Shown here in pieces: positions 8,057 through 34,932 of a stretch of 59,636 nucleotides of DNA. Position 1 is the first letter of the stretch; every line of letters starts with the position of its first letter. Location of the stretch: positions 1-59,636 of the IMG/VR virus record IMGVR_UViG_3300011116_000547, one strand, 5' to 3'. A program made the position numbers and the translations under genes. The notes under the pieces are model-generated. The model saw only the letters and a list, made by a program, of their open reading frames with translations. It did not search any database and was not told where the DNA came from. The stretch comes from a virus (Duplodnaviria; Caudoviricetes).

Positions 8057-8174
8057 AATTCAAGAAGACATAGATACAATCAGAGACAAAGCTGAAGAGT
8101 TAGAAAATCACGATTGTGATTCTGATTCTGACTCGGATGATTCTGATTGGTCTGATGAAGACGAAGACGAATAG
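8013..8174 (+). CDS. Small very acidic protein (53 aa)
   Basis: GGAG RBS; MGKKKSETIQDILDRIQEDIDTIRDKAEELENHDCDSDSDSDDSDWSDEDEDE*. Confidence 0.65.
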   Translation: MGKKKSETIQDILDRIQEDIDTIRDKAEELENHDCDSDSDSDDSDWSDEDEDE

Positions 8175-8722
8175 TTCACTAATATCTTCTCTTTCTTTGG
8201 GGGTCGTTGGGGTTTTCCTAATCTAATATCTTTTTGTTTTTGCACAACATCAGATTTTAGTTCTTCAACCTCAACACCTTCAAGGATCGGTGAATATTGA
8301 TCCAATACCTCTGCAATTCTTTTATCTAATTCCTCTTCAGATAAGTCATCTAACTTACCAGTCCTAATAATCTTTTGTTCAACATATAATCCAGCTACTT
8401 TTCCTCTGGCTACTTCAGCATTGACAGCAGCGCTCCAGGCTTTGTTTTTTAAAGCTTCATTTTTGATTTTACCTAGTTCTGTAATATGACTTTCAAAAGT
8501 AACATCATATTTCTTTTGATTTTCTGCTCTTAACTCTCCAATATATTGAACAACTAAAGGATACATTTTTGGATTTTGTAATTTGCTAGCAGCATTTTTA
8601 GCTGTATCAGGCGAATAGCCTGCAGCAATAGCCGCTTCCGTTCCAGTCATTCTTCCCTCATTGGTTACTAGTTCATGAGCGAATTTTATCTGCATTTCTG
8701 TAAGTCTTTTTGACAATCCCAT
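8108..8722 (-). CDS. terS: Terminase small subunit
   Basis: LTEMQIKFAHEL..TGTEAAIAAGYS..AASKL HTH, AVNAEVARGKVAGLY, DDLSEEELDKRI; start MGLSKRL at 8722. Confidence 0.8.
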   Translation of the reverse strand: MGLSKRLTEMQIKFAHELVTNEGRMTGTEAAIAAGYSPDTAKNAASKLQNPKMYPLVVQYIGELRAENQKKYDVTFESHITELGKIKNEALKNKAWSAAVNAEVARGKVAGLYVEQKIIRTGKLDDLSEEELDKRIAEVLDQYSPILEGVEVEELKSDVVQKQKDIRLGKPQRPPKKEKILVNYSSSSSSDQSESSESESESQS

Positions 8723-8726
8723 ACAC

Positions 8727-8760
8727 TTGATCTTATAGGTTAACTTTGGTATAAATGCAA
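8727..8760. promoter_or_regulatory. Overlapping divergent promoters
   Basis: Plus strand TTGATC-17-TATAAA; minus strand TTGCAT-17-TATAAG. Confidence 0.45.
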
Positions 8761-8786
8761 TAATCATTCATCTCCAAATAAATGAT

Positions 8787-9112: not shown

Positions 9113-9475
9113 GTGAAACCAGAGTCTAAATTTTGGCAAGAAGTTAAAAAAAATATTACAGAAATTTCTTTTACAAGGCTTGAATCTTGGGCCTCGGCTG
9201 GTGTTCCAGATCTCTTGTGCTATAACAAATCCGGTAAATTTTTCACAATTGAATTAAAGGTAACCAAAGGTGATTTTCCAAGGTTCTCTCCTCATCAAAT
9301 TAGCTTCCATGTAAGACATCCCAATAATACTTTCATCTTGCAAAAGGCCCTCGGTCCTTTGTCCATAAAACTTTATGAAGGATCACAGATCATGAAGCTT
9401 GTGAACCATGAGCCTTGTGCCTTTGTTGCAGAAGGATGGACCAAGGTTCAAGAACATCTTGTCAATGTGACATAA
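9113..9475 (+). CDS. VRR-NUC/Holliday junction resolvase-like PD-(D/E)XK nuclease
   Basis: PESKFW..RLES..GVPDLL..IELK..SPHQ. Confidence 0.8.
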   Translation: MKPESKFWQEVKKNITEISFTRLESWASAGVPDLLCYNKSGKFFTIELKVTKGDFPRFSPHQISFHVRHPNNTFILQKALGPLSIKLYEGSQIMKLVNHEPCAFVAEGWTKVQEHLVNVT

Positions 9476-9515
9476 TGTCGCACCCCAACTAAAAACCTGT
9501 GGGCGGGTCCCACCC
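9461..9515 (+). repeat. Composite element copy A: TGTGACATAATGTCGCA palindrome plus CTAAAAACCTGTGGGCGGGTCCCACCC
   Basis: Near-identical to 10808-10861. Confidence 0.85.
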
Positions 9516-9519
9516 ACGT

Positions 9520-9652
9520 TTGCTTGCGGCTTGTGCCTGCTGCTTGTTGGTACTTGTCACTTGTTCCTTGGCTCAAGGCAATAAAAAACTTGCGGGCGGG
9601 AATCCCTCCCGCTTGTGAGCTTGTGAGCTTGTGGCTTGTGCCTGCTGCTTGT
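9520..9652 (+). repeat. Strand-biased (G)CTTGT short-repeat tract
   Basis: Many CTTG units; 20-mer GGCTTGTGCCTGCTGCTTGT at 9528-9547 and 9633-9652. Confidence 0.8.
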
Positions 9653-9716
9653 GGGTACGGCCCGACCCCGAGTCTCCCCGGGTAGACACTCTAATGAGAA
9701 ATGATATCGGGCCATG

Positions 9717-10322
9717 TTAATGTTTACCGTATGCAATGTTTTTAACATTACGATCCCAACAAGCCCGGCAACTTTTGCACTTGTTATCTTGCTCAGCGGC
9801 CGGGCATGTTTTTTCTGACGTAACAACGGTAGACGTCCAGGGCCAAAATGTTGCGGCCTTGCCGTCTACTTTATGGGCAGAAAACCTTATAATTAAATTT
9901 GATGGTACTTGATCCGGTGTTATACAACCAATAATTGAAGCTTCTCTTGTGGGTAACCAATGCTTAATATTCGGCGTTAGTTTACACACTTCAAAAATTT
10001 TCTTTAAATGATCTAATGACTGTAAATCTCCGGAATCGTGCCATCTAAAAAACTCTGTTTTTGTTTCTAGTATGCTTGTTGCCATGGCCTGGACCCATAG
10101 AGGATGGGTTAAAGAATCTAATCTACGTTGCATTGCATCTTTTACGTTTGGAAAACGGTACCTGCCTTTTAAAGCATAACAACCAAAGCAAACGGACCCT
10201 GGAATCTTAACAAGTTTACTACCTGTAATACATTTTGTGGCCGGTAAGTTATAACTATAACCAGGCATTTTGGAGGGCTTACTGAGCCCTCCAGTTATTA
10301 ATTTTAATTGATGCTTATCCAT
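9717..10322 (-). CDS. GP88-like (radical-SAM-related) Cys-rich protein
   Basis: LSKPSKMPG..C..VCFGCYA..FRWHDSGD..CPA..C..CRACW. Confidence 0.72.
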   Translation of the reverse strand: MDKHQLKLITGGLSKPSKMPGYSYNLPATKCITGSKLVKIPGSVCFGCYALKGRYRFPNVKDAMQRRLDSLTHPLWVQAMATSILETKTEFFRWHDSGDLQSLDHLKKIFEVCKLTPNIKHWLPTREASIIGCITPDQVPSNLIIRFSAHKVDGKAATFWPWTSTVVTSEKTCPAAEQDNKCKSCRACWDRNVKNIAYGKH

Positions 10323-10492
10323 TACCTTTTAATTTTTTTCTTTATTGGAGCCTGGGCCCTGAAATTTGAATCAAAGCTGTTTAATCTTGCAGGCGTTAAC
10401 TCATACATATGAAACCCTGGCTCAGTTTTAATTTTCTTAAAACCTAAGTCTTCTAATTGTTTCATGCCGTTATTATTAACTCTAACTTTCAT
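10322..10492 (-). CDS. Hypothetical protein (56 aa)
   Basis: GGAGG RBS; MKVRVNNNGMKQLEDLGFKK...KIKR*; TAATG coupling to GP88-like gene. Confidence 0.65.
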   Translation of the reverse strand: MKVRVNNNGMKQLEDLGFKKIKTEPGFHMYELTPARLNSFDSNFRAQAPIKKKIKR

Positions 10493-10513
10493 GTTTTTTC
10501 CTCCGTTGTTATG

Positions 10514-10722
10514 TATACCCGGACCTCTTTCTCAGTCCGGGTATAGCAAGGACTGATAATACACAGTATTTTAGCCAACGATTAAACGTTGTAACAGGAT
10601 TGCTGTATCACCTTTAACACCGAAACGATCTGGCCGAGTTTACGGCTCTATCTCTTTGCTTTCGCATTCATCGGTTGACTAGGAAGGGATGTGTGATCTA
10701 TTTCGCTAGCACCTTCTGTCAA
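10514..10722 (-). ncRNA. Candidate multi-stem structured RNA (leader or standalone ncRNA)
   Basis: At least six stems, including a GAAA-tetraloop hairpin and an 11-bp perfect hairpin, between a promoter and the first RBS. Confidence 0.6.
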
Positions 10723-10727
10723 TTGAA

Positions 10728-10756
10728 ATACTATCCCATCTAATCCCAGAAAGCAA
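10728..10756 (-). promoter_or_regulatory. Sigma70-type promoter with two TGGGA boxes in spacer
   Basis: Minus strand TTGCTT-17-TAGTAT. Confidence 0.55.
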
Positions 10757-10807
10757 GAATTAAATTTTAATGATTTGCCCCGGTCCTTGATCAACTAATC
10801 TTTATAA

Positions 10808-10945
10808 GTCAATGCGACATAGTGTCGCAGGCTACTAAATACCTGTGGGCGGGCCCCACCCAAGAATAATAAAACACTAAACACCTGTGGGCGGGCCCCA
10901 CCCAAGAATAATAAAACACTAAACACCTGTGGGCGGGCCCCACCC
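10808..10945 (+). repeat. TGCGACATAGTGTCGCA palindrome followed by three tandem 28-bp repeats (42-bp period)
   Basis: ACTAAAYACCTGTGGGCGGGCCCCACCC at 10834, 10876 and 10918 with identical 14-bp linkers. Confidence 0.92.
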
Positions 10946-10969
10946 TAAAAAAAACATAAAAGATTATAG

Positions 10970-10999
10970 TTGACTTAATCTGGGATATTATGTTATACT
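10970..10999 (+). promoter_or_regulatory. Sigma70-type promoter with TGGGA in spacer
   Basis: TTGACT-18-TATACT with extended TG. Confidence 0.65.
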
Positions 11000-11027
11000 T
11001 TCAAAAACTAACAACGAAAGGAATAGT

Positions 11028-11579
11028 ATGTCAAAAGCAATGACTAAATATCAGCTCGACCACTTTAGAGATAAAGTTAAGAGAGAGCTCGACCCTATGA
11101 TTGAACAACAAGAATTACTTGTTCGTCAATATGTATCACAGGCAACCGACACAGCTTCTAAAAAACTTGCCAAAAAAATAGGTGCTCAATCTATTATTGA
11201 TAAGTTAAAACAAGCTGAACAATACCTATTGGAAGCACAGGCAACAGCTAAAACTTTCTTTAAAAAGAAAGCTAACAATGAAAGCTTAAAAGGAAAACTT
11301 GATTACAAGTTTGCTTCTAATGATATTAAAGAGGATAGGATAACAGTTGCTCTTTGTGAGGAACAAATAAGAGAGTGGGCTAGTGAGCTTGCTCAACAAG
11401 AAATAGAAAAAAGACCAGAGGGCAAAAAACTTTCTGAATTGAAACAAGTTAAGAGAGTGGCACTTGATACAATAATGGAAGCACACGCCCCAGCCGAATT
11501 GATTGCTAATCTAGATAAAGTATTACAAGCTAGTATTGGTATCGGCTGGAATAATACAGCACCAAAAATTAGCGCATAA
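11028..11579 (+). CDS. Helical hypothetical protein (probably early)
   Basis: Own promoter and GAAAGGA RBS; 183-aa ORF. Confidence 0.8.
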   Translation: MSKAMTKYQLDHFRDKVKRELDPMIEQQELLVRQYVSQATDTASKKLAKKIGAQSIIDKLKQAEQYLLEAQATAKTFFKKKANNESLKGKLDYKFASNDIKEDRITVALCEEQIREWASELAQQEIEKRPEGKKLSELKQVKRVALDTIMEAHAPAELIANLDKVLQASIGIGWNNTAPKISA

Positions 11580-11581
11580 AT

Positions 11582-11613
11582 AAAAAAGGGAACAGGGCAA
11601 AGGCCCTGTTCCC
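11582..11613 (-). terminator. Intrinsic terminator between convergent genes
   Basis: GGGAACAGGGC-AAAG-GCCCTGTTCCC 11-bp stem with A6 on the left (U-tract on minus strand). Confidence 0.8.
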
Positions 11614-11630
11614 TGTTCCAAGTTTCAATA

Positions 11631-11786
11631 TTATTTTTTTCTACTTTCCCTGTACTTTGTATCGAAATCCTTTTCTTGCCTTTTCTCTACTAGTAAAACA
11701 ATCCAATAGAATAAAACAGCAATCAACAAGGACAACGAAACAAATGTAATAAAGTAATCATAAAGTTCGTTTATTGTTTCAAGCAT
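11631..11786 (-). CDS. Small membrane protein (51 aa)
   Basis: MLETINELYDYFITFVSLSLLIAVLFYWIVLLVEKRQEK...; AAGGT RBS. Confidence 0.6.
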   Translation of the reverse strand: MLETINELYDYFITFVSLSLLIAVLFYWIVLLVEKRQEKDFDTKYRESRKK

Positions 11787-11961
11787 ATATTACCTTTGTT
11801 GTTTCCCTTTCATCGTAAGTTGATATTAAATCGTCTGTTAATGTATCATCACATTTAGTTAAAATAAAAGAACGAGTTTCCCCCTCTTTTATTGTGAAAC
11901 CTTGCTCAACAAATCGTTGAGCAAGATTATCAGTTATATTTATTTCAGTATTATATTCCAT
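11779..11961 (-). CDS. Hypothetical protein
   Basis: Coupled within minus-strand operon. Confidence 0.6.
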   Translation of the reverse strand: MEYNTEINITDNLAQRFVEQGFTIKEGETRSFILTKCDDTLTDDLISTYDERETTKVIYA

Positions 11962-12201
11962 TTAGACAACAGCCTCTATTTGATTAAAGTGTGCCCAACG
12001 AGGACCTTTGTATTCATCCTCGTATGATATTGTCCCAATGTAATCTAGTTCAGTATCATATTCCTTTACTTGGATAGCTGAATCCATTTCAGCTTTTTTG
12101 TCGTGATAGTCTAATGAAATATTAATAGCTTCAATAGTTCCTATTACTACACCCCTATCCCAAGTTCTTATTTTTACTTTATCATCTAACTTTATTTTCA
12201 T
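11962..12201 (-). CDS. Hypothetical protein (SH3/KOW-like beta pattern)
   Basis: IKLDDKVKI..GVVIGTIEAI; AAGGA RBS. Confidence 0.65.
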   Translation of the reverse strand: MKIKLDDKVKIRTWDRGVVIGTIEAINISLDYHDKKAEMDSAIQVKEYDTELDYIGTISYEDEYKGPRWAHFNQIEAVV

Positions 12202-12202
12202 A

Positions 12203-12337
12203 TTATAGTCCTTTATTTTTAGAACACACTCTTAATACATCTTGTTCTATTTTCTTAACTCTCTTTGTTATTAGATAAAGTATATCAAGTATTTGTGTTA
12301 TCTTTTCTTTTTGTGTCATCTTTCTTTTTGTTTCCAT
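12203..12337 (-). CDS. Hypothetical protein (44 aa)
   Basis: METKRKMTQKEKITQILDILY...; preceded by the ACTAACAACGAAAG leader also found before 11028. Confidence 0.55.
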   Translation of the reverse strand: METKRKMTQKEKITQILDILYLITKRVKKIEQDVLRVCSKNKGL

Positions 12338-12477: not shown

Positions 12478-12538
12478 ACTAAATACCTGTGGGCGGGTCC
12501 CACCCATGGTACTAAATACATGTGGGCGGGTCCCACCC
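12478..12538 (+). repeat. Two further copies of the 28-bp repeat (33-bp period)
   Basis: ACTAAATACCTGTGGGCGGGTCCCACCC at 12478 and ACTAAATACATGTGGGCGGGTCCCACCC at 12511. Confidence 0.92.
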
Positions 12539-31104: not shown

Positions 31105-31860
31105 ATGTTTGATAAAGAAATAGAGTTTAGTGCTCATGAAGATTATTTTGCATTAAAAGAAGATTATCCAATCCCTGCAAAATTAAATATTCCAGATTGG
31201 TATAAAAATTTAGAACATACTGTTTTAAATAAAACAATTAAAGGATGTATACCTTTTTTAGATTCTTTAACAGCTGGGTATTTATTAAAAATGCCTCAAG
31301 ATTTTCATGTTAGACATAATGTTGATAATAAAAATAAAAAAGAAGAAACATTTAAAGACTCTTTTCAAACTTTTGGAATGCATGATCAGTCGCAATTATT
31401 ACATGCAAAACATATAAATTTAAATTCTGGATTTGATACACATTCAATAAAACAGTTAGAAGGGTCTCCTTTAGTAGAAAAAAATAAAAATTTACCTTTT
31501 TATAAAATATTAAACCCATGGAAAATAAAAACACCAAAAGGATATTCTTGTTTATTCGTTTCACCATTAAACAATTCTGACGATAGATTTTCAATTATCC
31601 CTGGAATTGTAGATACAGATTCTTTTCCACTTGAAGTAAATTTTCCAATTATAATTAATGGAGATAAATATCCTGTTTTAGAAACAACAATTAAAAAAGG
31701 AACGCCTTATGCTCAAGTAATACCTTTTAAAAGAGATTCATGGAAAATGATAGTAAAATCAAGGGAACAAAAAGAAATACAAAATTTTAGAATTTTTTAT
31801 GGGTTAAAATTATTAAATATATATAAAGATAAATATTGGAATAAGAAATCATGGAAATAA
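31105..31860 (+). CDS. Conserved phage protein of oxygenase islands (IPDWYK/TIKGC.PFLD/PGIVDTD/GTP..Q.IPFKR)
   Basis: Motif pattern; function not assignable. Confidence 0.7.
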   Translation: MFDKEIEFSAHEDYFALKEDYPIPAKLNIPDWYKNLEHTVLNKTIKGCIPFLDSLTAGYLLKMPQDFHVRHNVDNKNKKEETFKDSFQTFGMHDQSQLLHAKHINLNSGFDTHSIKQLEGSPLVEKNKNLPFYKILNPWKIKTPKGYSCLFVSPLNNSDDRFSIIPGIVDTDSFPLEVNFPIIINGDKYPVLETTIKKGTPYAQVIPFKRDSWKMIVKSREQKEIQNFRIFYGLKLLNIYKDKYWNKKSWK

Positions 31861-32414
31861 AAAATTTTATAAAGATATATGATGAAGTATTACCTTGGAA
31901 GGTATTGTCTAATTTAATTCGTTTTGCAAATAATTCAAAATTTGTAGAAACAAAAGTAGGTGTAGATGTTAAAATAGATTTTAATATAAGAAAAACATAT
32001 ACTTTACCATTATCTAATTTAGATAATTCTATGTCTAATGTGCATTGGTTTAATTTACTTTTTCATTATTTTGATAAAAATTTAAAACAATATAGATTTG
32101 ATGCAAATATATTAGACTATGATTATAGAAATATTTTTGACATAGAAATTTTAAAATATGAAAACACTGGATTTTATACTTGGCATGTTGATCATTTTGC
32201 AACAATTCCAAGAACAATGAGTTGTATTTTACTTCTTAATAATGATTACGAAGGTGGTAATTTATGTTTTAGAAATCCAGATGGATCAGGAGAATGGGAA
32301 GTAGAAGTTAAGCCCAATAGAATGATTATTTGGCCAAGTAATTTTTTATATCCTCATACGGTTAAACCAGTGACGAAAGGAACAAGGTATTCAGTTGTAG
32401 CATGGGCACTATAA
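31851..32414 (+). CDS. 2OG-Fe(II) oxygenase, prolyl-4-hydroxylase-like
   Basis: WHVD, LNNDYEGG, YPHTVKPVTKGTRYS. Confidence 0.9.
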   Translation: MEIKNFIKIYDEVLPWKVLSNLIRFANNSKFVETKVGVDVKIDFNIRKTYTLPLSNLDNSMSNVHWFNLLFHYFDKNLKQYRFDANILDYDYRNIFDIEILKYENTGFYTWHVDHFATIPRTMSCILLLNNDYEGGNLCFRNPDGSGEWEVEVKPNRMIIWPSNFLYPHTVKPVTKGTRYSVVAWAL

Positions 32415-32947
32415 GAGATTTTAAATATAAATTAATAAATAATTTTTTAAGTAAAGAAGAAATTAAACTATTAACAGATTATTGTAGAATTAAACATAGA
32501 ATTAATTTTGATTCTTTTGAGTTTTTACAAGGTGATAACGGAGATACTTGTTTTTATGGAGATCCATTAATGGAATCTCTTATGGTTAATAAATTAGAAT
32601 TAATGCAAAAAGAAACTGGTTTAGAATTATTGCCAACTTATGCATTCTGGAGAATGTATACAATAAATGCTGATTTAAAAAAACACATTGACAGACCATC
32701 ATGTGAAATAAGTGTTACAGCAATGATTGGTTCAGATGGAACATCTTGGCCTATATTTATAGATGGAAAAAAGATAGAATTGAAACCAGGAGATGCTGCT
32801 ATATATCTTGGATGTGAAGTAGAACATTGGAGAGAAGAATTTAAAGGAGATTGGCATGCACAAACATTTTTACATTATGTAGATAAAAATGGATTAAATA
32901 AAGAATGGTTTAAGGATAAAAGATTATTATACGGAACACAAAAATGA
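32402..32947 (+). CDS. 2OG-Fe(II) oxygenase-like protein
   Basis: PTY..RMY, KHIDRPSCEIS, EHWRE, QTFLHY. Confidence 0.78.
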   Translation: MGTIRDFKYKLINNFLSKEEIKLLTDYCRIKHRINFDSFEFLQGDNGDTCFYGDPLMESLMVNKLELMQKETGLELLPTYAFWRMYTINADLKKHIDRPSCEISVTAMIGSDGTSWPIFIDGKKIELKPGDAAIYLGCEVEHWREEFKGDWHAQTFLHYVDKNGLNKEWFKDKRLLYGTQK

Positions 32948-33504
32948 ACTTTGATTTAAAAGTTAAAGATATTTCTATAGAAACATATATTTTGACAGGT
33001 AAAATAGATAATCAAGAAGTAATTAATAATTTAATTAATTTTATAAAAATTTCAAAAGATGAAGAATTAAGCTATAAAACACATGTTAAAGGTCATTTTA
33101 CAGGTTTTAAAAGTTTAATAGAAAATAAAGATTTTTTTAATTTTTTAAAAATTATTCAAGAAAATATAAAAATTATTTATAATAAGAATTTTATAATTAA
33201 TGATGCATGGGGAAATATTTGTAAAAAAGGAGAAGAGGTAGTAGAACACAATCATGGAAGTATTACTGGTTTTTGTGGTATACTTTATTTAACTGAAAAT
33301 GGACCTGGGACTTATTTTAAAGACTATGATTTATTAATTAAAGAAGAAATAGGAAAATACATTTTATTTCATCCAAAATTATTTCATAAAGTTGAAAAAA
33401 TAACAAATGATATAGAAAGAATAACTGTTGCTTTTAATATGAATGAAATTAAAACTTGGGATAATTTAACAAACATAAAATGGGTAAATAAAAATGAAAT
33501 TTAA
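32944..33504 (+). CDS. 2OG-Fe(II) oxygenase-like (HxH type)
   Basis: WGN..EHNH..GILYL..GT.F..FHKV..RITVAFN. Confidence 0.78.
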   Translation: MNFDLKVKDISIETYILTGKIDNQEVINNLINFIKISKDEELSYKTHVKGHFTGFKSLIENKDFFNFLKIIQENIKIIYNKNFIINDAWGNICKKGEEVVEHNHGSITGFCGILYLTENGPGTYFKDYDLLIKEEIGKYILFHPKLFHKVEKITNDIERITVAFNMNEIKTWDNLTNIKWVNKNEI

Positions 33505-33712
33505 ACAATATGAAAATGGGTCTTGTGATATAGAGTTTTCTGTAAAAGAAAGATGGATTATTTTAAAAAAAGGAAAAATACATTTATCAGATGAAGCATT
33601 ACGACATTTTGGTAATAAACTCGTGCAAATGGTTGCGGATTGGAATTTAAAATTTAATGAAGAGTTAAAAAATAAACTTACTTTTAATGATACTAAAATA
33701 GAAGGAAAATAA
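33494..33712 (+). CDS. Hypothetical protein
   Basis: Coupled ORF in island. Confidence 0.65.
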   Translation: MKFKQYENGSCDIEFSVKERWIILKKGKIHLSDEALRHFGNKLVQMVADWNLKFNEELKNKLTFNDTKIEGK

Positions 33713-34344
33713 TGTTTTTTTCAAGTTCAATATACATAGAAGAAGAACTTTCTTTTTTAGAAAATTTTAATAAACATACTAATTCTTATATTGAAAATTC
33801 AAGGAATAAAAACAAACAAAAAATGTTTAATAATAGAGATTTTGGATTAGTTCATCATTCAGATTCACTATTAAATGATTTAAATTTTTTTAATTTTATA
33901 AAATTAATATGCAAAAAATCTTACAATATTTTAGATAAACAAGGGTATGACTTGTCAAATTTTTTATTAGTTGCATCGGAAATGTGGGTTCAAGAATTTT
34001 CAAAAGAAGGAGGTGGTTTTCACAGTTTACACACTCATTGGAATGGACATATTTCTGGGTTTTATTTTTTAAAATGTTCAGATAAAACATCTTTTCCAAT
34101 TTTTCATGATCCAAGACCTGGTAAAATGATGATTCAATTACCTGAAAAAAATGAAAATGAAATTTCAGATTCTTCTGAAAAAATAATTTTTAAACCAAAA
34201 CCTGGAACTCTTGTATTTTTTAATTCATATTTACCACATGAATTTGTGGTTGATCAAGGGGTGGATCCTTTTAGGTTTATTCATTTTAACGTACAGGCCA
34301 TTCAAAAAAGATTAATTAATGGTGATATTAAAAAAATAAATTAA
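33712..34344 (+). CDS. 2OG-Fe(II) oxygenase-like (TIGR02466-type)
   Basis: MWVQ..HTH..ISGFYFL..FHDPR..FNSYLPH..RFIHFN. Confidence 0.82.
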   Translation: MFFSSSIYIEEELSFLENFNKHTNSYIENSRNKNKQKMFNNRDFGLVHHSDSLLNDLNFFNFIKLICKKSYNILDKQGYDLSNFLLVASEMWVQEFSKEGGGFHSLHTHWNGHISGFYFLKCSDKTSFPIFHDPRPGKMMIQLPEKNENEISDSSEKIIFKPKPGTLVFFNSYLPHEFVVDQGVDPFRFIHFNVQAIQKRLINGDIKKIN

Positions 34345-34932
34345 ATGAAAAATAATCATGAATTTATTAAATTATTTGAAACTTTTGTTTTATTTAATAA
34401 ATTAAATTTAGACTTAGAAAAATATTTAAAATATATTTACGATATTTATAAAATTGATAATAATGGAAGAAAAATATCTAACTTTGGAGGTTGGCAAAGT
34501 AATTTTTTAAATTTATCTGATTCTATTTTAGAACCATTCTTAAATGAAATTTCCAAAAATAGTAAAATTTTATTAGAAAATTATTCACTTAATAATAGAA
34601 ATTATAAAATAGAAAGTATGTGGGCAAATATAAATAAATATAAAGATTCAAATCACGTTCATCATCATAGCGGATCTGTAATATCTGGGGTTTTTTATTT
34701 AAAAACTAATAAAGATTGTGGATCAATAGTTTTTAAACATCCTTCAGAAATAATTAATTTTTGTTGGAGACGTGATGATTATAAAGAATACAATCAAACA
34801 AATGGATTTTTTTATGAATTTCAACCAGAAGATAATGCTTTATTATTATTTCCATCTTGGCTTAATCATTATGTAAATCCTAATTTAAACAAAGAAGTAG
34901 ATAGGGTCTCTATTTCTTTTAATATTGTTTAA
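34345..34932 (+). CDS. 2OG-Fe(II) oxygenase-like (TIGR02466-type)
   Basis: GGWQS, MWANIN..HHH..ISGVFY..FPSWLNHYV..RVSISFN. Confidence 0.85.
   Translation: MKNNHEFIKLFETFVLFNKLNLDLEKYLKYIYDIYKIDNNGRKISNFGGWQSNFLNLSDSILEPFLNEISKNSKILLENYSLNNRNYKIESMWANINKYKDSNHVHHHSGSVISGVFYLKTNKDCGSIVFKHPSEIINFCWRRDDYKEYNQTNGFFYEFQPEDNALLLFPSWLNHYVNPNLNKEVDRVSISFNIV

Follow-up and report, generated by a model that had tools for sequence, protein, structure and literature searches.

What occupies the roughly 210 nucleotides that separate a predicted promoter from the first ribosome-binding site (RBS) of a small phage operon, and does this stretch act as an RNA? A sequence-only reading of the window (the whole 59,636-nucleotide stretch of DNA analysed here, a complete 59.6-kb phage genome with direct terminal repeats) had placed there an undescribed multi-domain structured RNA, expressed early and conceivably sensing a metabolite for a putative Fe-S/SAM enzyme encoded behind it. 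The stretch, which we call the leader, lies in a 535-bp gap that separates the divergent gene p183 from the pair formed by p56 and a GP88-like protein gene (Table 1). An overlapping 48-aa ORF (10648-10794) was rejected as a gene, having no family matches and differing between relatives by indels that are not multiples of three. A tRNA/tmRNA search of the window found none, and when 10300-11100 was compared by blastn with 50,697 phage records, none of them matched. Clusters of Cys residues in the GP88-like protein are potential metal ligands, and a comparison of this protein with the PDB gave no match. The phage encodes two terminase proteins, one small and one large; the latter is 68.8% identical to its counterpart in Pelagibacter phage HTVC027P and the GP88-like protein is 55% identical to HTVC027P gp33, and these identities indicate that the phage is a relative of the HTVC023P-type pelagiphages. 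This phage group is reported to be widespread in the ocean; the sequencing runs that contain DNA of the window phage carry mostly freshwater labels. A search with the GP88-like protein gave 75 viral loci, and the intergenic region of the 14 close ones was aligned.

The two ends of the leader are as the sequence-only reading had described them. The sigma-70-type promoter agrees with 8 of 12 consensus positions and so is not listed by a simple scan with a threshold of 9; its block TTGCnnTCTnGGATAnnATGGGATAnTATTT is kept in 13 of the 14 close relatives, and the RNA is predicted to start at about 10722-10719. The first RBS is the expected GGAGG at about 10500, and such a purine-rich site after AACAAC is common to relatives with and without the RNA. 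The gap is also comparatively GC-rich (39% in 10001-11000, against about 32% in the genome). When folded, the 233-nt leader has a minimum free energy (MFE) of -62.8 kcal/mol, compared with -49.9 +/- 4.9 kcal/mol for 200 shuffled sequences (z -2.62), four of which were as good; the leader folds better than its shuffled controls, to a degree that is modest taken alone. Six RNA runs are listed among those with the phage's DNA, with small shares, and contigs from four metatranscriptome runs leave 10482-10709 uncovered, contigs being unable to demonstrate absence.

Table 1. Coordinates of features in and around the leader (window numbering).
Feature	Position	Strand	Details
Small terminase gene	8108-8767	minus	behind the GP88-like gene
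GP88-like protein gene	9717-10322	minus	PF17338, E 1.5e-29
p56 (56-aa ORF)	10322-10492	minus	ATG at 10492-10490
RBS AACAAC-GGAGG and p56 ATG	10490..10510	minus	GGAGG at 10504-10500; ATG at 10492-10490
12-bp hairpin UAUACCCGGACU-GAGAAAGA-GGUCCGGGUAUA	10514..10545	minus	no U-tract after it
Middle domain	10561..10612	minus	fold prediction; ACAG-CAAUC-CUGU hairpin 10594-10606; CAACG-UUUAAU-CGUUG hairpin 10576-10591 (10587-10591 with 10576-10580)
Three-way junction (3WJ) core	10619..10675	minus	R1 covariance model, 70.1 bits, E 4.5e-18
P1 (A)CCGA/UCGG(U); J12 UGAA; P2 UGC-GAAA-GCA	part of 10619..10675	minus	P1, 10671-10674 with 10620-10623; P2 hairpin, 10657-10666
J23 AAGAGAUAG(A); P3 GCCG-UAAACU-CGGC; J31 CAGAUCGUU	part of 10619..10675	minus	P3, 10643-10646 with 10633-10636
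5' hairpin module	10675..10722	minus	outer UUGAC/GUCAA, inner GAAGG/CCUUC (10675-10687 with 10712-10722)
Palindromic loop hexamer GCUAGC	10705..10710	minus	predicted symmetric kissing-loop (homodimer) site
Sigma-70-type promoter	10728..10756	minus	TTGCTT (10756-10751), 17-nt spacer, TAGTAT (10733-10728); sequence reading
p183	11028-11579	plus	without family assignment
GGGTGGGrCCCGCCCACAGGTrTTTAGT copies	9496-9514, 10842-10860, 10884-10902, 10926-10944, 12486-12504, 12519-12537	minus	

The three-way junction and the palindromic 5' hairpin

Members of the 3WJ family were gathered by pattern scans of viral, metagenome and genome collections, and a covariance model, R1, was built from ten hand-checked 3WJ sequences. 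R1 gives true members 43-90 bits, one copy cut by a contig end 27 bits and chance pattern matches less than 26 bits. The window carries a single copy (R1 match at 10616-10678), and the junction was found in 8 of the 75 GP88 loci and in 20 distinct sequences altogether. Loci L083 and L089 were rejected as chance pattern matches at 15.6 bits, as were 23 of the 32 loci of one pattern scan, which scored less than 26 bits or had no listed match; the other nine scored 55-80 bits. In the hand-checked alignment A1 (n = 10) 93.5% of cells are paired and 14 of 17 pairs are compensatory, and in the model-fitted alignment A3 (n = 20) the figures are 96.0% and 16 of 17; the A3 counts lean towards the structure because that alignment was fitted to the model, those of A1 being slightly lower, and with related phages as the source of the sequences the covariation counts are not independent events. 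In both alignments 0 of 500 shuffles were as high, and slid controls reached 28-48% for A1 and 23-46% for A3. The stems that had been picked out from the sequence in this half of the leader (P1, P2, P3 and the double helix of the 5' hairpin) are thus all present and kept with compensatory changes in relatives, which is strong support for them. G-U pairs are frequent in the junction helices (for example, 7 of 19 at the first P3 pair), as fits a minus strand that is read as RNA. These findings argue that the structure is real and that the minus strand acts as an RNA.

This RNA has no counterpart in Rfam. Rfam 15 gave no matches in the whole window at gathering score and none in twelve related loci; at E up to 10, the region 10300-11100 gave three chance-level matches (miRNA, lncRNA and tp2), none of them on 10505-10722, and the large RNA of L096 and the leader of L085 gave nothing relevant. 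No description of the RNA was found in the literature, as far as the accessible portion of PMC10690425 allows, and that catalogue of 10,006 IMG/VR candidate structured RNAs may list it. We conclude that the stretch is a real, uncatalogued structured phage RNA at the start of the operon, as the sequence-only reading had supposed. Its minus strand from 10722 to 10505 may well be the transcribed 5' end of the p56/GP88-like operon and a mosaic of self-contained RNA modules.

About 22 junction bases are near-invariant (strands UGrA, ArAGAGAUAG and C-A-GAUCGUU), an invariance that is partly imposed, because the search patterns that brought in most members had the junction sequence fixed; the members found by other routes (L093, L094, L020, L024, L005 and L023) retain UGrAU, ArAGAG and GAUCGUU. 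The periphery varies widely. P2 and P3 range from 3-bp stems with GAAA, UUUU or six-base loops to 5-8-bp stems with larger loops, UUCUGNACGCGCU being common to some long P3 loops, and the 5' strand of P1 (CCGA, CCAGA, AUUGA or CCCCA) covaries with its 3' strand. One explanation for such a core is a self-cleaving ribozyme of a new class, which would cut the leader, free the structured RNA and give the mRNA a new 5' end. About 22 fixed bases at a three-way junction whose stems vary freely would suit it, as would the patchy, phage-restricted use of the RNA as a portable cassette (below), since small ribozymes are similarly patchy and portable in their distribution. However, even with E up to 10 none of the ribozyme families in Rfam is matched. 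The hammerhead, itself a three-way junction, has unpaired core strands CUGANGA, GAAA and UH, and the strands found here are UGAA, AAGAGAUAG and CAGAUCGUU; the bases before UGAA covary as P1, and AAGAGAUAG follows P2. We consider cleavage by the junction improbable.

The 5' hairpin adjoins P1 of the junction without a linker, and in L139 and L142 it occurs without the junction. In an alignment of 12 distinct sequences (A2) its inner helix is 91.7% paired, with three of five pairs compensatory, and by reading of the sequences its outer helix covaries as well (GAC/GUC, GAUU/AAUC, GGAU/AUCC and UGGAUCC/GGAUCCA). Its loop of about 24 nt reads U-GCUAGC-GAAAUAGAUCACACAUC(C) in the window, and the consensus is a U, a hexamer and then GAAAUAGAyNACACrUC. 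The hexamer is a perfect palindrome in all 22 instances (12 distinct sequences) and takes five forms, GCUAGC, UCCGGA, AGUACU, GGUACC and CCAUGG; its three mirror positions are complementary in 12 of 12 rows (100%), all of them with compensatory changes, the central adjacent pair included. Loci L140 and L008 differ at only 5 of 54 positions, four of which lie in the hexamer (GCUAGC versus UCCGGA), and L139 and L142 behave in the same way (CCAUGG versus UCCGGA). Long, seven-base P2 loops likewise switch palindromes (UAAUUA, UGAUCA), and a separate hairpin module of relatives switches from UGGCUAGCCA to UGGUUAACCA. Because adjacent loop bases cannot pair within one molecule, we read the hexamer covariation as loop-to-loop pairing of two copies; in the simplest reading, palindrome switching would be the signature of a symmetric kissing loop, that is, of an RNA homodimer. 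According to bioRxiv 10.1101/2024.12.08.627333, adjacent-base covariation in the kissing loops of OLE and GOLLD was argued to reflect pairing between chains, and cryo-EM showed such loop bridges in both RNAs.

The same palindromes could in principle belong to the DNA, as duplex sites for a protein or a restriction-modification-type enzyme, with the apparent stems as by-products. All five hexamers are 6-bp palindromes of the type that dimeric DNA enzymes recognise, and operator-like palindromes and tandem repeats surround the region. On the other hand, the helices stay paired by way of G-U intermediates that are mismatched in the opposite strand, the flanks of the hexamer are asymmetric, its self-complementarity is conserved and its sequence is not, and the hexamers occur genome-wide at about the expected frequency. 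A DNA-level element is therefore very unlikely indeed.

Several other features of the hairpin family were set aside. L141 is a chance match of the hairpin search pattern, with a non-palindromic TATTCT in the hexamer position; GCUAGC in the differing leader of L002 is merely the apex of an 11-bp hairpin; and 9 of 19 new loci found with the pattern of another module, H1, proved on reading to be coding or unrelated sequence. Mimicry of the anti-Shine-Dalgarno sequence by GAUCAC...CCUUCCU of the 5' hairpin was rejected, the CCUUCC part being CCUGGAUCC in L139 and L142, and so was a pseudoknot between GAUC of the 5' loop and GAUC of J31, the loop GAUC being gone in L116, L023 and L121.

The 3' half and the distribution of modules

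The 3' half of the leader is different in character. The middle domain recurs, nearly unchanged, in L093 and L094 only, which share the whole 5' cassette with the window and differ from it in the genes behind. Its structure is therefore a prediction from folding without covariation; the CAACG/CGUUG stem that had been noticed is present but invariant in these two homologues, and the MFE alternative has a long-range GUGAUACAG/CUGUGUAUUAUC helix surrounding the CAACG-UUUAAU-CGUUG hairpin. The next hairpin had been described as 11 perfect base pairs; the hairpin itself is there, with 12 pairs, 11 of them Watson-Crick and one G-U. No homologue of it was found, and in relatives other, unrelated long hairpins occupy the position. 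Like the middle domain, the 12-bp hairpin is an addition specific to its lineage.

In the MFE fold of the window, GUCCU (10549-10553), which flanks the 12-bp hairpin, pairs with the Shine-Dalgarno sequence, whose predicted probability of being unpaired is 0.28 in the window and 0.24-0.25 in L011 and L008, against 0.5-0.8 in the remaining 16 of 19 variants. By these fold predictions Shine-Dalgarno pairing is not a family trait, and the 12-bp hairpin may partly mask the RBS in the window phage alone. The distance from the core to the ATG among the variants is 18-184 nt, and no U-tract terminator follows the 3WJ core in their predicted folds. A leader of this kind might be a passive 5' stabiliser or processing signal, in which a stable 5' structure blocks decay or guides RNase III-type processing and has no specific partner. 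The structure does begin near transcript position +4, different relatives have long hairpins unrelated in sequence ahead of the RBS, and the element is dispensable (below); but a stabiliser would need neither the roughly 22 invariant junction bases nor a palindrome kept through five sequence switches, and we give this explanation little credence.

The RNA is not a fixed part of the locus. In five of the 14 close relatives (L003, L006, L013, L016 and L019) the RBS follows directly after the promoter and the same genes follow without leader RNA; three (L010, L011 and L012) carry a shorter insert of about 125 nt that is homologous to the 5' half of the window leader, four have an extra ORF in its place and two have something else, while L008 has the RNA and an extra ORF together. 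Thus, the RNA is an optional cassette just after the transcription start. A transposon-like insertion was considered and rejected, since the borders of the cassette show neither a target duplication nor terminal inverted repeats. The ORFs that come first after the cassette are small and fall into at least six unrelated families, none of them with a significant Pfam assignment, and in L096, L098, L121 and L137 CAAGC repeats and a new TTGACA promoter come after the 3WJ. Relatives that have the promoter CTTGACAATATCTGTCAATAGGATTATATAGGA form a subgroup whose RNA consists of modules in varying combinations (H1; a domain of about 170 nt, closed by UUGUAAGUUGUGG/CCACAACUUACAA; a GACUAC hairpin with a "type B" hairpin; a "type A" hairpin; the palindrome hairpin; and the junction) and is ORF-free for up to about 400 nt. 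Such modular ORF-free RNAs, in which the junction is the last domain, follow one conserved promoter in L096 (12850-13760), L098 (5470-6020), L144, L152, L160 and others; in L160 the same P1 helix encloses a different insert of about 80 nt. Among 185,579 species genomes, 12 pattern matches included one true member, a 2-kb contig binned with a Chitinophagia MAG. These distributions point to the 5' half (10619-10722) being a conserved, phage-only RNA.

The 3WJ is absent from the four closest GenBank phage genomes (HTVC027P, 023Pt_psg01, HTVC023P and DSL-LC04; 0 of 4 at E up to 0.01), and a search of two of these loci with filters off also gave none. The cultured phage HTVC027P has in its place, at the homologous locus (L162 3201-3749, minus strand), about 450 nt of unannotated, GC-rich sequence without ORFs, bounded by a TTGACA promoter and gp34; this stretch folds with z -3.9 and is by this prediction a candidate large structured RNA. 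Since a different structured ORF-free stretch stands at the same place, the locus looks like a general site where these phages put structured RNAs, with modules shuffled among lineages. PMC12753301 places HTVC027P gp33 and gp34 in a separate temporal cluster, which is high at 6-9 hpi. By analogy this lends indirect support to the suggestion that the window RNA is expressed early.

These observations bear on whether the RNA controls the operon in cis, as a riboswitch or protein-binding switch whose junction would bind a small molecule or a protein of phage or host and set translation or transcription elongation of the operon; in a variant, dimerisation might make control depend on transcript concentration. 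The element starts a few bases from the predicted RNA start and usually ends just before the RBS, aptamers typically combine, as here, an invariant junction with peripheral helices of variable length, fold prediction has the Shine-Dalgarno sequence mostly paired in the window, L011 and L008, and the homologous HTVC027P operon has its own temporal profile (PMC12753301). However, the predicted folds show no consistent expression platform: the spacing to the ATG ranges from 18 to 184 nt, with unrelated hairpins between, the Shine-Dalgarno sequence is mostly open in 16 of 19 variants, and no terminator follows the core. In addition, the downstream genes are unrelated ORFans, the element is missing from close relatives with the same genes, and in four relatives the RNA is separated from the next gene by a new promoter. 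A cis-acting leader is thus possible, though unlikely. The specific proposal of metabolite sensing for the GP88-like enzyme fares worse. A riboswitch is generally associated with a pathway, and this cassette precedes unrelated families, is lacking in relatives that have the same genes and forms part of ORF-free RNAs of about 400 nt; the tempting interpretation as a riboswitch for a GP88-like Fe-S-type protein is not supported, and we have set it aside.

Possible functions and comparable RNAs

What the RNA does can be approached from its optional and portable nature: it stands before unrelated genes and is a domain of ORF-free RNAs of about 400 nt with their own promoter, which argues for an autonomous RNA and not a dedicated sensor. 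We favour, with a probability of about one half, an autonomous self-associating structured phage RNA, in which the palindrome would mediate a homodimer and the junction would be a specific site, made from an early or middle promoter. Host RNA polymerase would initiate at the conserved sigma-70-type promoter; the first 105 nt or so would fold into two adjoining modules, the palindrome hairpin and then the three-way junction; two copies would pair loop-to-loop through GCUAGC into a symmetric homodimer, as the covariation suggests; the invariant junction would form a specific three-dimensional site that binds or catalyses something; and the cassette would act independently of the downstream gene. 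Two observations count against autonomy. The RNA is mostly attached to mRNA as a leader, in the window and in most relatives, which also fits a cis role, and the window RBS is predicted to be mostly paired. Even so, we rank the cis role, the new ribozyme and the simple stabiliser all below the self-associating RNA.

We rate the RNA as a new family of a known general kind, unusual in its small size, modular use and palindrome switching. Its closest parallels in behaviour are the ornate RNAs OLE, GOLLD and ROOL, which are about 500-800 nt long; GOLLD and ROOL are linked with phages. The likeness lies in loop pairing between chains, which in the leader is predicted from sequence: as in ornate RNAs, a self-complementary loop is kept by compensatory change through all instances of its five palindromes. 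Unlike OLE, GOLLD and ROOL, which form dimers or cages, the leader is only 105-230 nt in the window (up to about 400 nt in relatives) and is usually fused to mRNA, and it has no sequence or Rfam relationship to them. The ornate-RNA preprint is reportedly also in Nature 2025 (PMC12286853).

Other phage and viral RNAs share single features with the leader. The pRNA of phi29, a phage RNA whose gene lies close to packaging genes, is built around a three-way junction and pairs between molecules through its loops; its loops form complementary pairs, and it is essential in phages without a TerS/TerL terminase. The leader likewise has a three-way junction, predicted loop-loop pairing and packaging genes nearby, but its loops are palindromic, the RNA is optional, the phage has TerS and TerL, and no Rfam match places it with phi29-type pRNA. 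HK022 put is a structured RNA just after a phage promoter that acts whatever gene follows, and consists of two stem-loops with no junction. Like put and other antitermination leaders, the window RNA starts after a promoter and has terminator-like hairpins downstream (9499-9517 and 9580-9611); in contrast to put it has a junction, relatives without the element keep the same terminator-like hairpins, and a put-type mechanism of processive antitermination has no role for a palindromic loop. Among retroviral dimer initiation sites, the HIV-1 DIS, a six-base hairpin-loop palindrome near the 5' end of the transcript with alternative palindromes by lineage, resembles the leader in all these respects, but serves co-packaging of an RNA genome, and the window is a DNA phage. 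Finally, the C4 RNA of P1/P7 and the CI RNA of P4 are small, structured immunity RNAs from a phage operon leader that pair with sites in the same mRNA. The leader, too, would be a small structured RNA from the start of the operon that it precedes, but it has no match to the Rfam C4 family, to which those RNAs belong.

Natural homo-oligomeric RNAs are few, and the clear cases are large, with function still to be found. The present candidate is small (about 105 nt, with two conserved modules) and has clean covariation, in three junction helices and in a palindrome that has switched at least four times. Finding the junction's partner could bring to light a new level, based on RNA, at which phages time their genes or take over the host. 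A bolder idea, which is speculative and which we hold to be decidedly doubtful, is that these RNAs are a new small class of lineage-coded homodimers, in which the hexamer would be a quickly swapped barcode against cross-pairing with co-infecting relatives and the dimer would be the active form. The dimer might then be a concentration-dependent timer for an early-to-middle operon or, alternatively, a trans-acting particle that binds a host factor through the invariant junction; together with the other modules of the relatives, it would make up a set of RNA domains that phages of SAR11-type bacteria use in various combinations.

Other features of the locus

Beyond the GP88-like gene, the minus strand carries CAAGC repeats with two terminator-like hairpins, then an operator-like palindrome and finally the small terminase gene, so that the leader most likely serves only p56 and the GP88-like gene. 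The CAAGC arrays lie behind the GP88-like stop codon (9517-9716, minus strand), and the two hairpins named above are interleaved with them; CAAGC-type arrays also end the ORF-free RNAs of relatives, directly before the next promoter. The operator-like sequence is a 17-bp palindrome, TGCGACA-N3-TGTCGCA, present at 10813-10829 and, with one mismatch, at 9466-9482. Each copy stands just upstream of TTGAC, the same module occurs before promoters in relatives, and it is probably an operator for some regulator.

The sequence GGGTGGGrCCCGCCCACAGGTrTTTAGT is present in six copies in the window, all on the minus strand; three are in tandem at an exact 42-bp spacing between p183 and the leader promoter, and the number of repeats in relatives is 1 to 5. 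The copy at 9499-9517 scored as an intrinsic-terminator-like hairpin, and the repeats could be either terminators or sites for a protein. Between p183 and a convergent minus-strand cluster of small ORFs (11631-12337) lies a strong terminator hairpin of 12 bp with U-tracts (11587-11614).

Antisense within the 950-bp gap from the GP88-like gene to the small terminase gene is a 120-aa ORF (9113-9475, plus strand) with endonuclease/HNH-type PHROG matches (best E 5e-12), which may be a homing-endonuclease insertion. Elsewhere the phage encodes a SAM decarboxylase, Hsp20, GroES and a ferredoxin, and a five-gene run at 31851-34932 has PHROG matches of the 2OG-Fe(II) oxygenase or ferrochelatase type.
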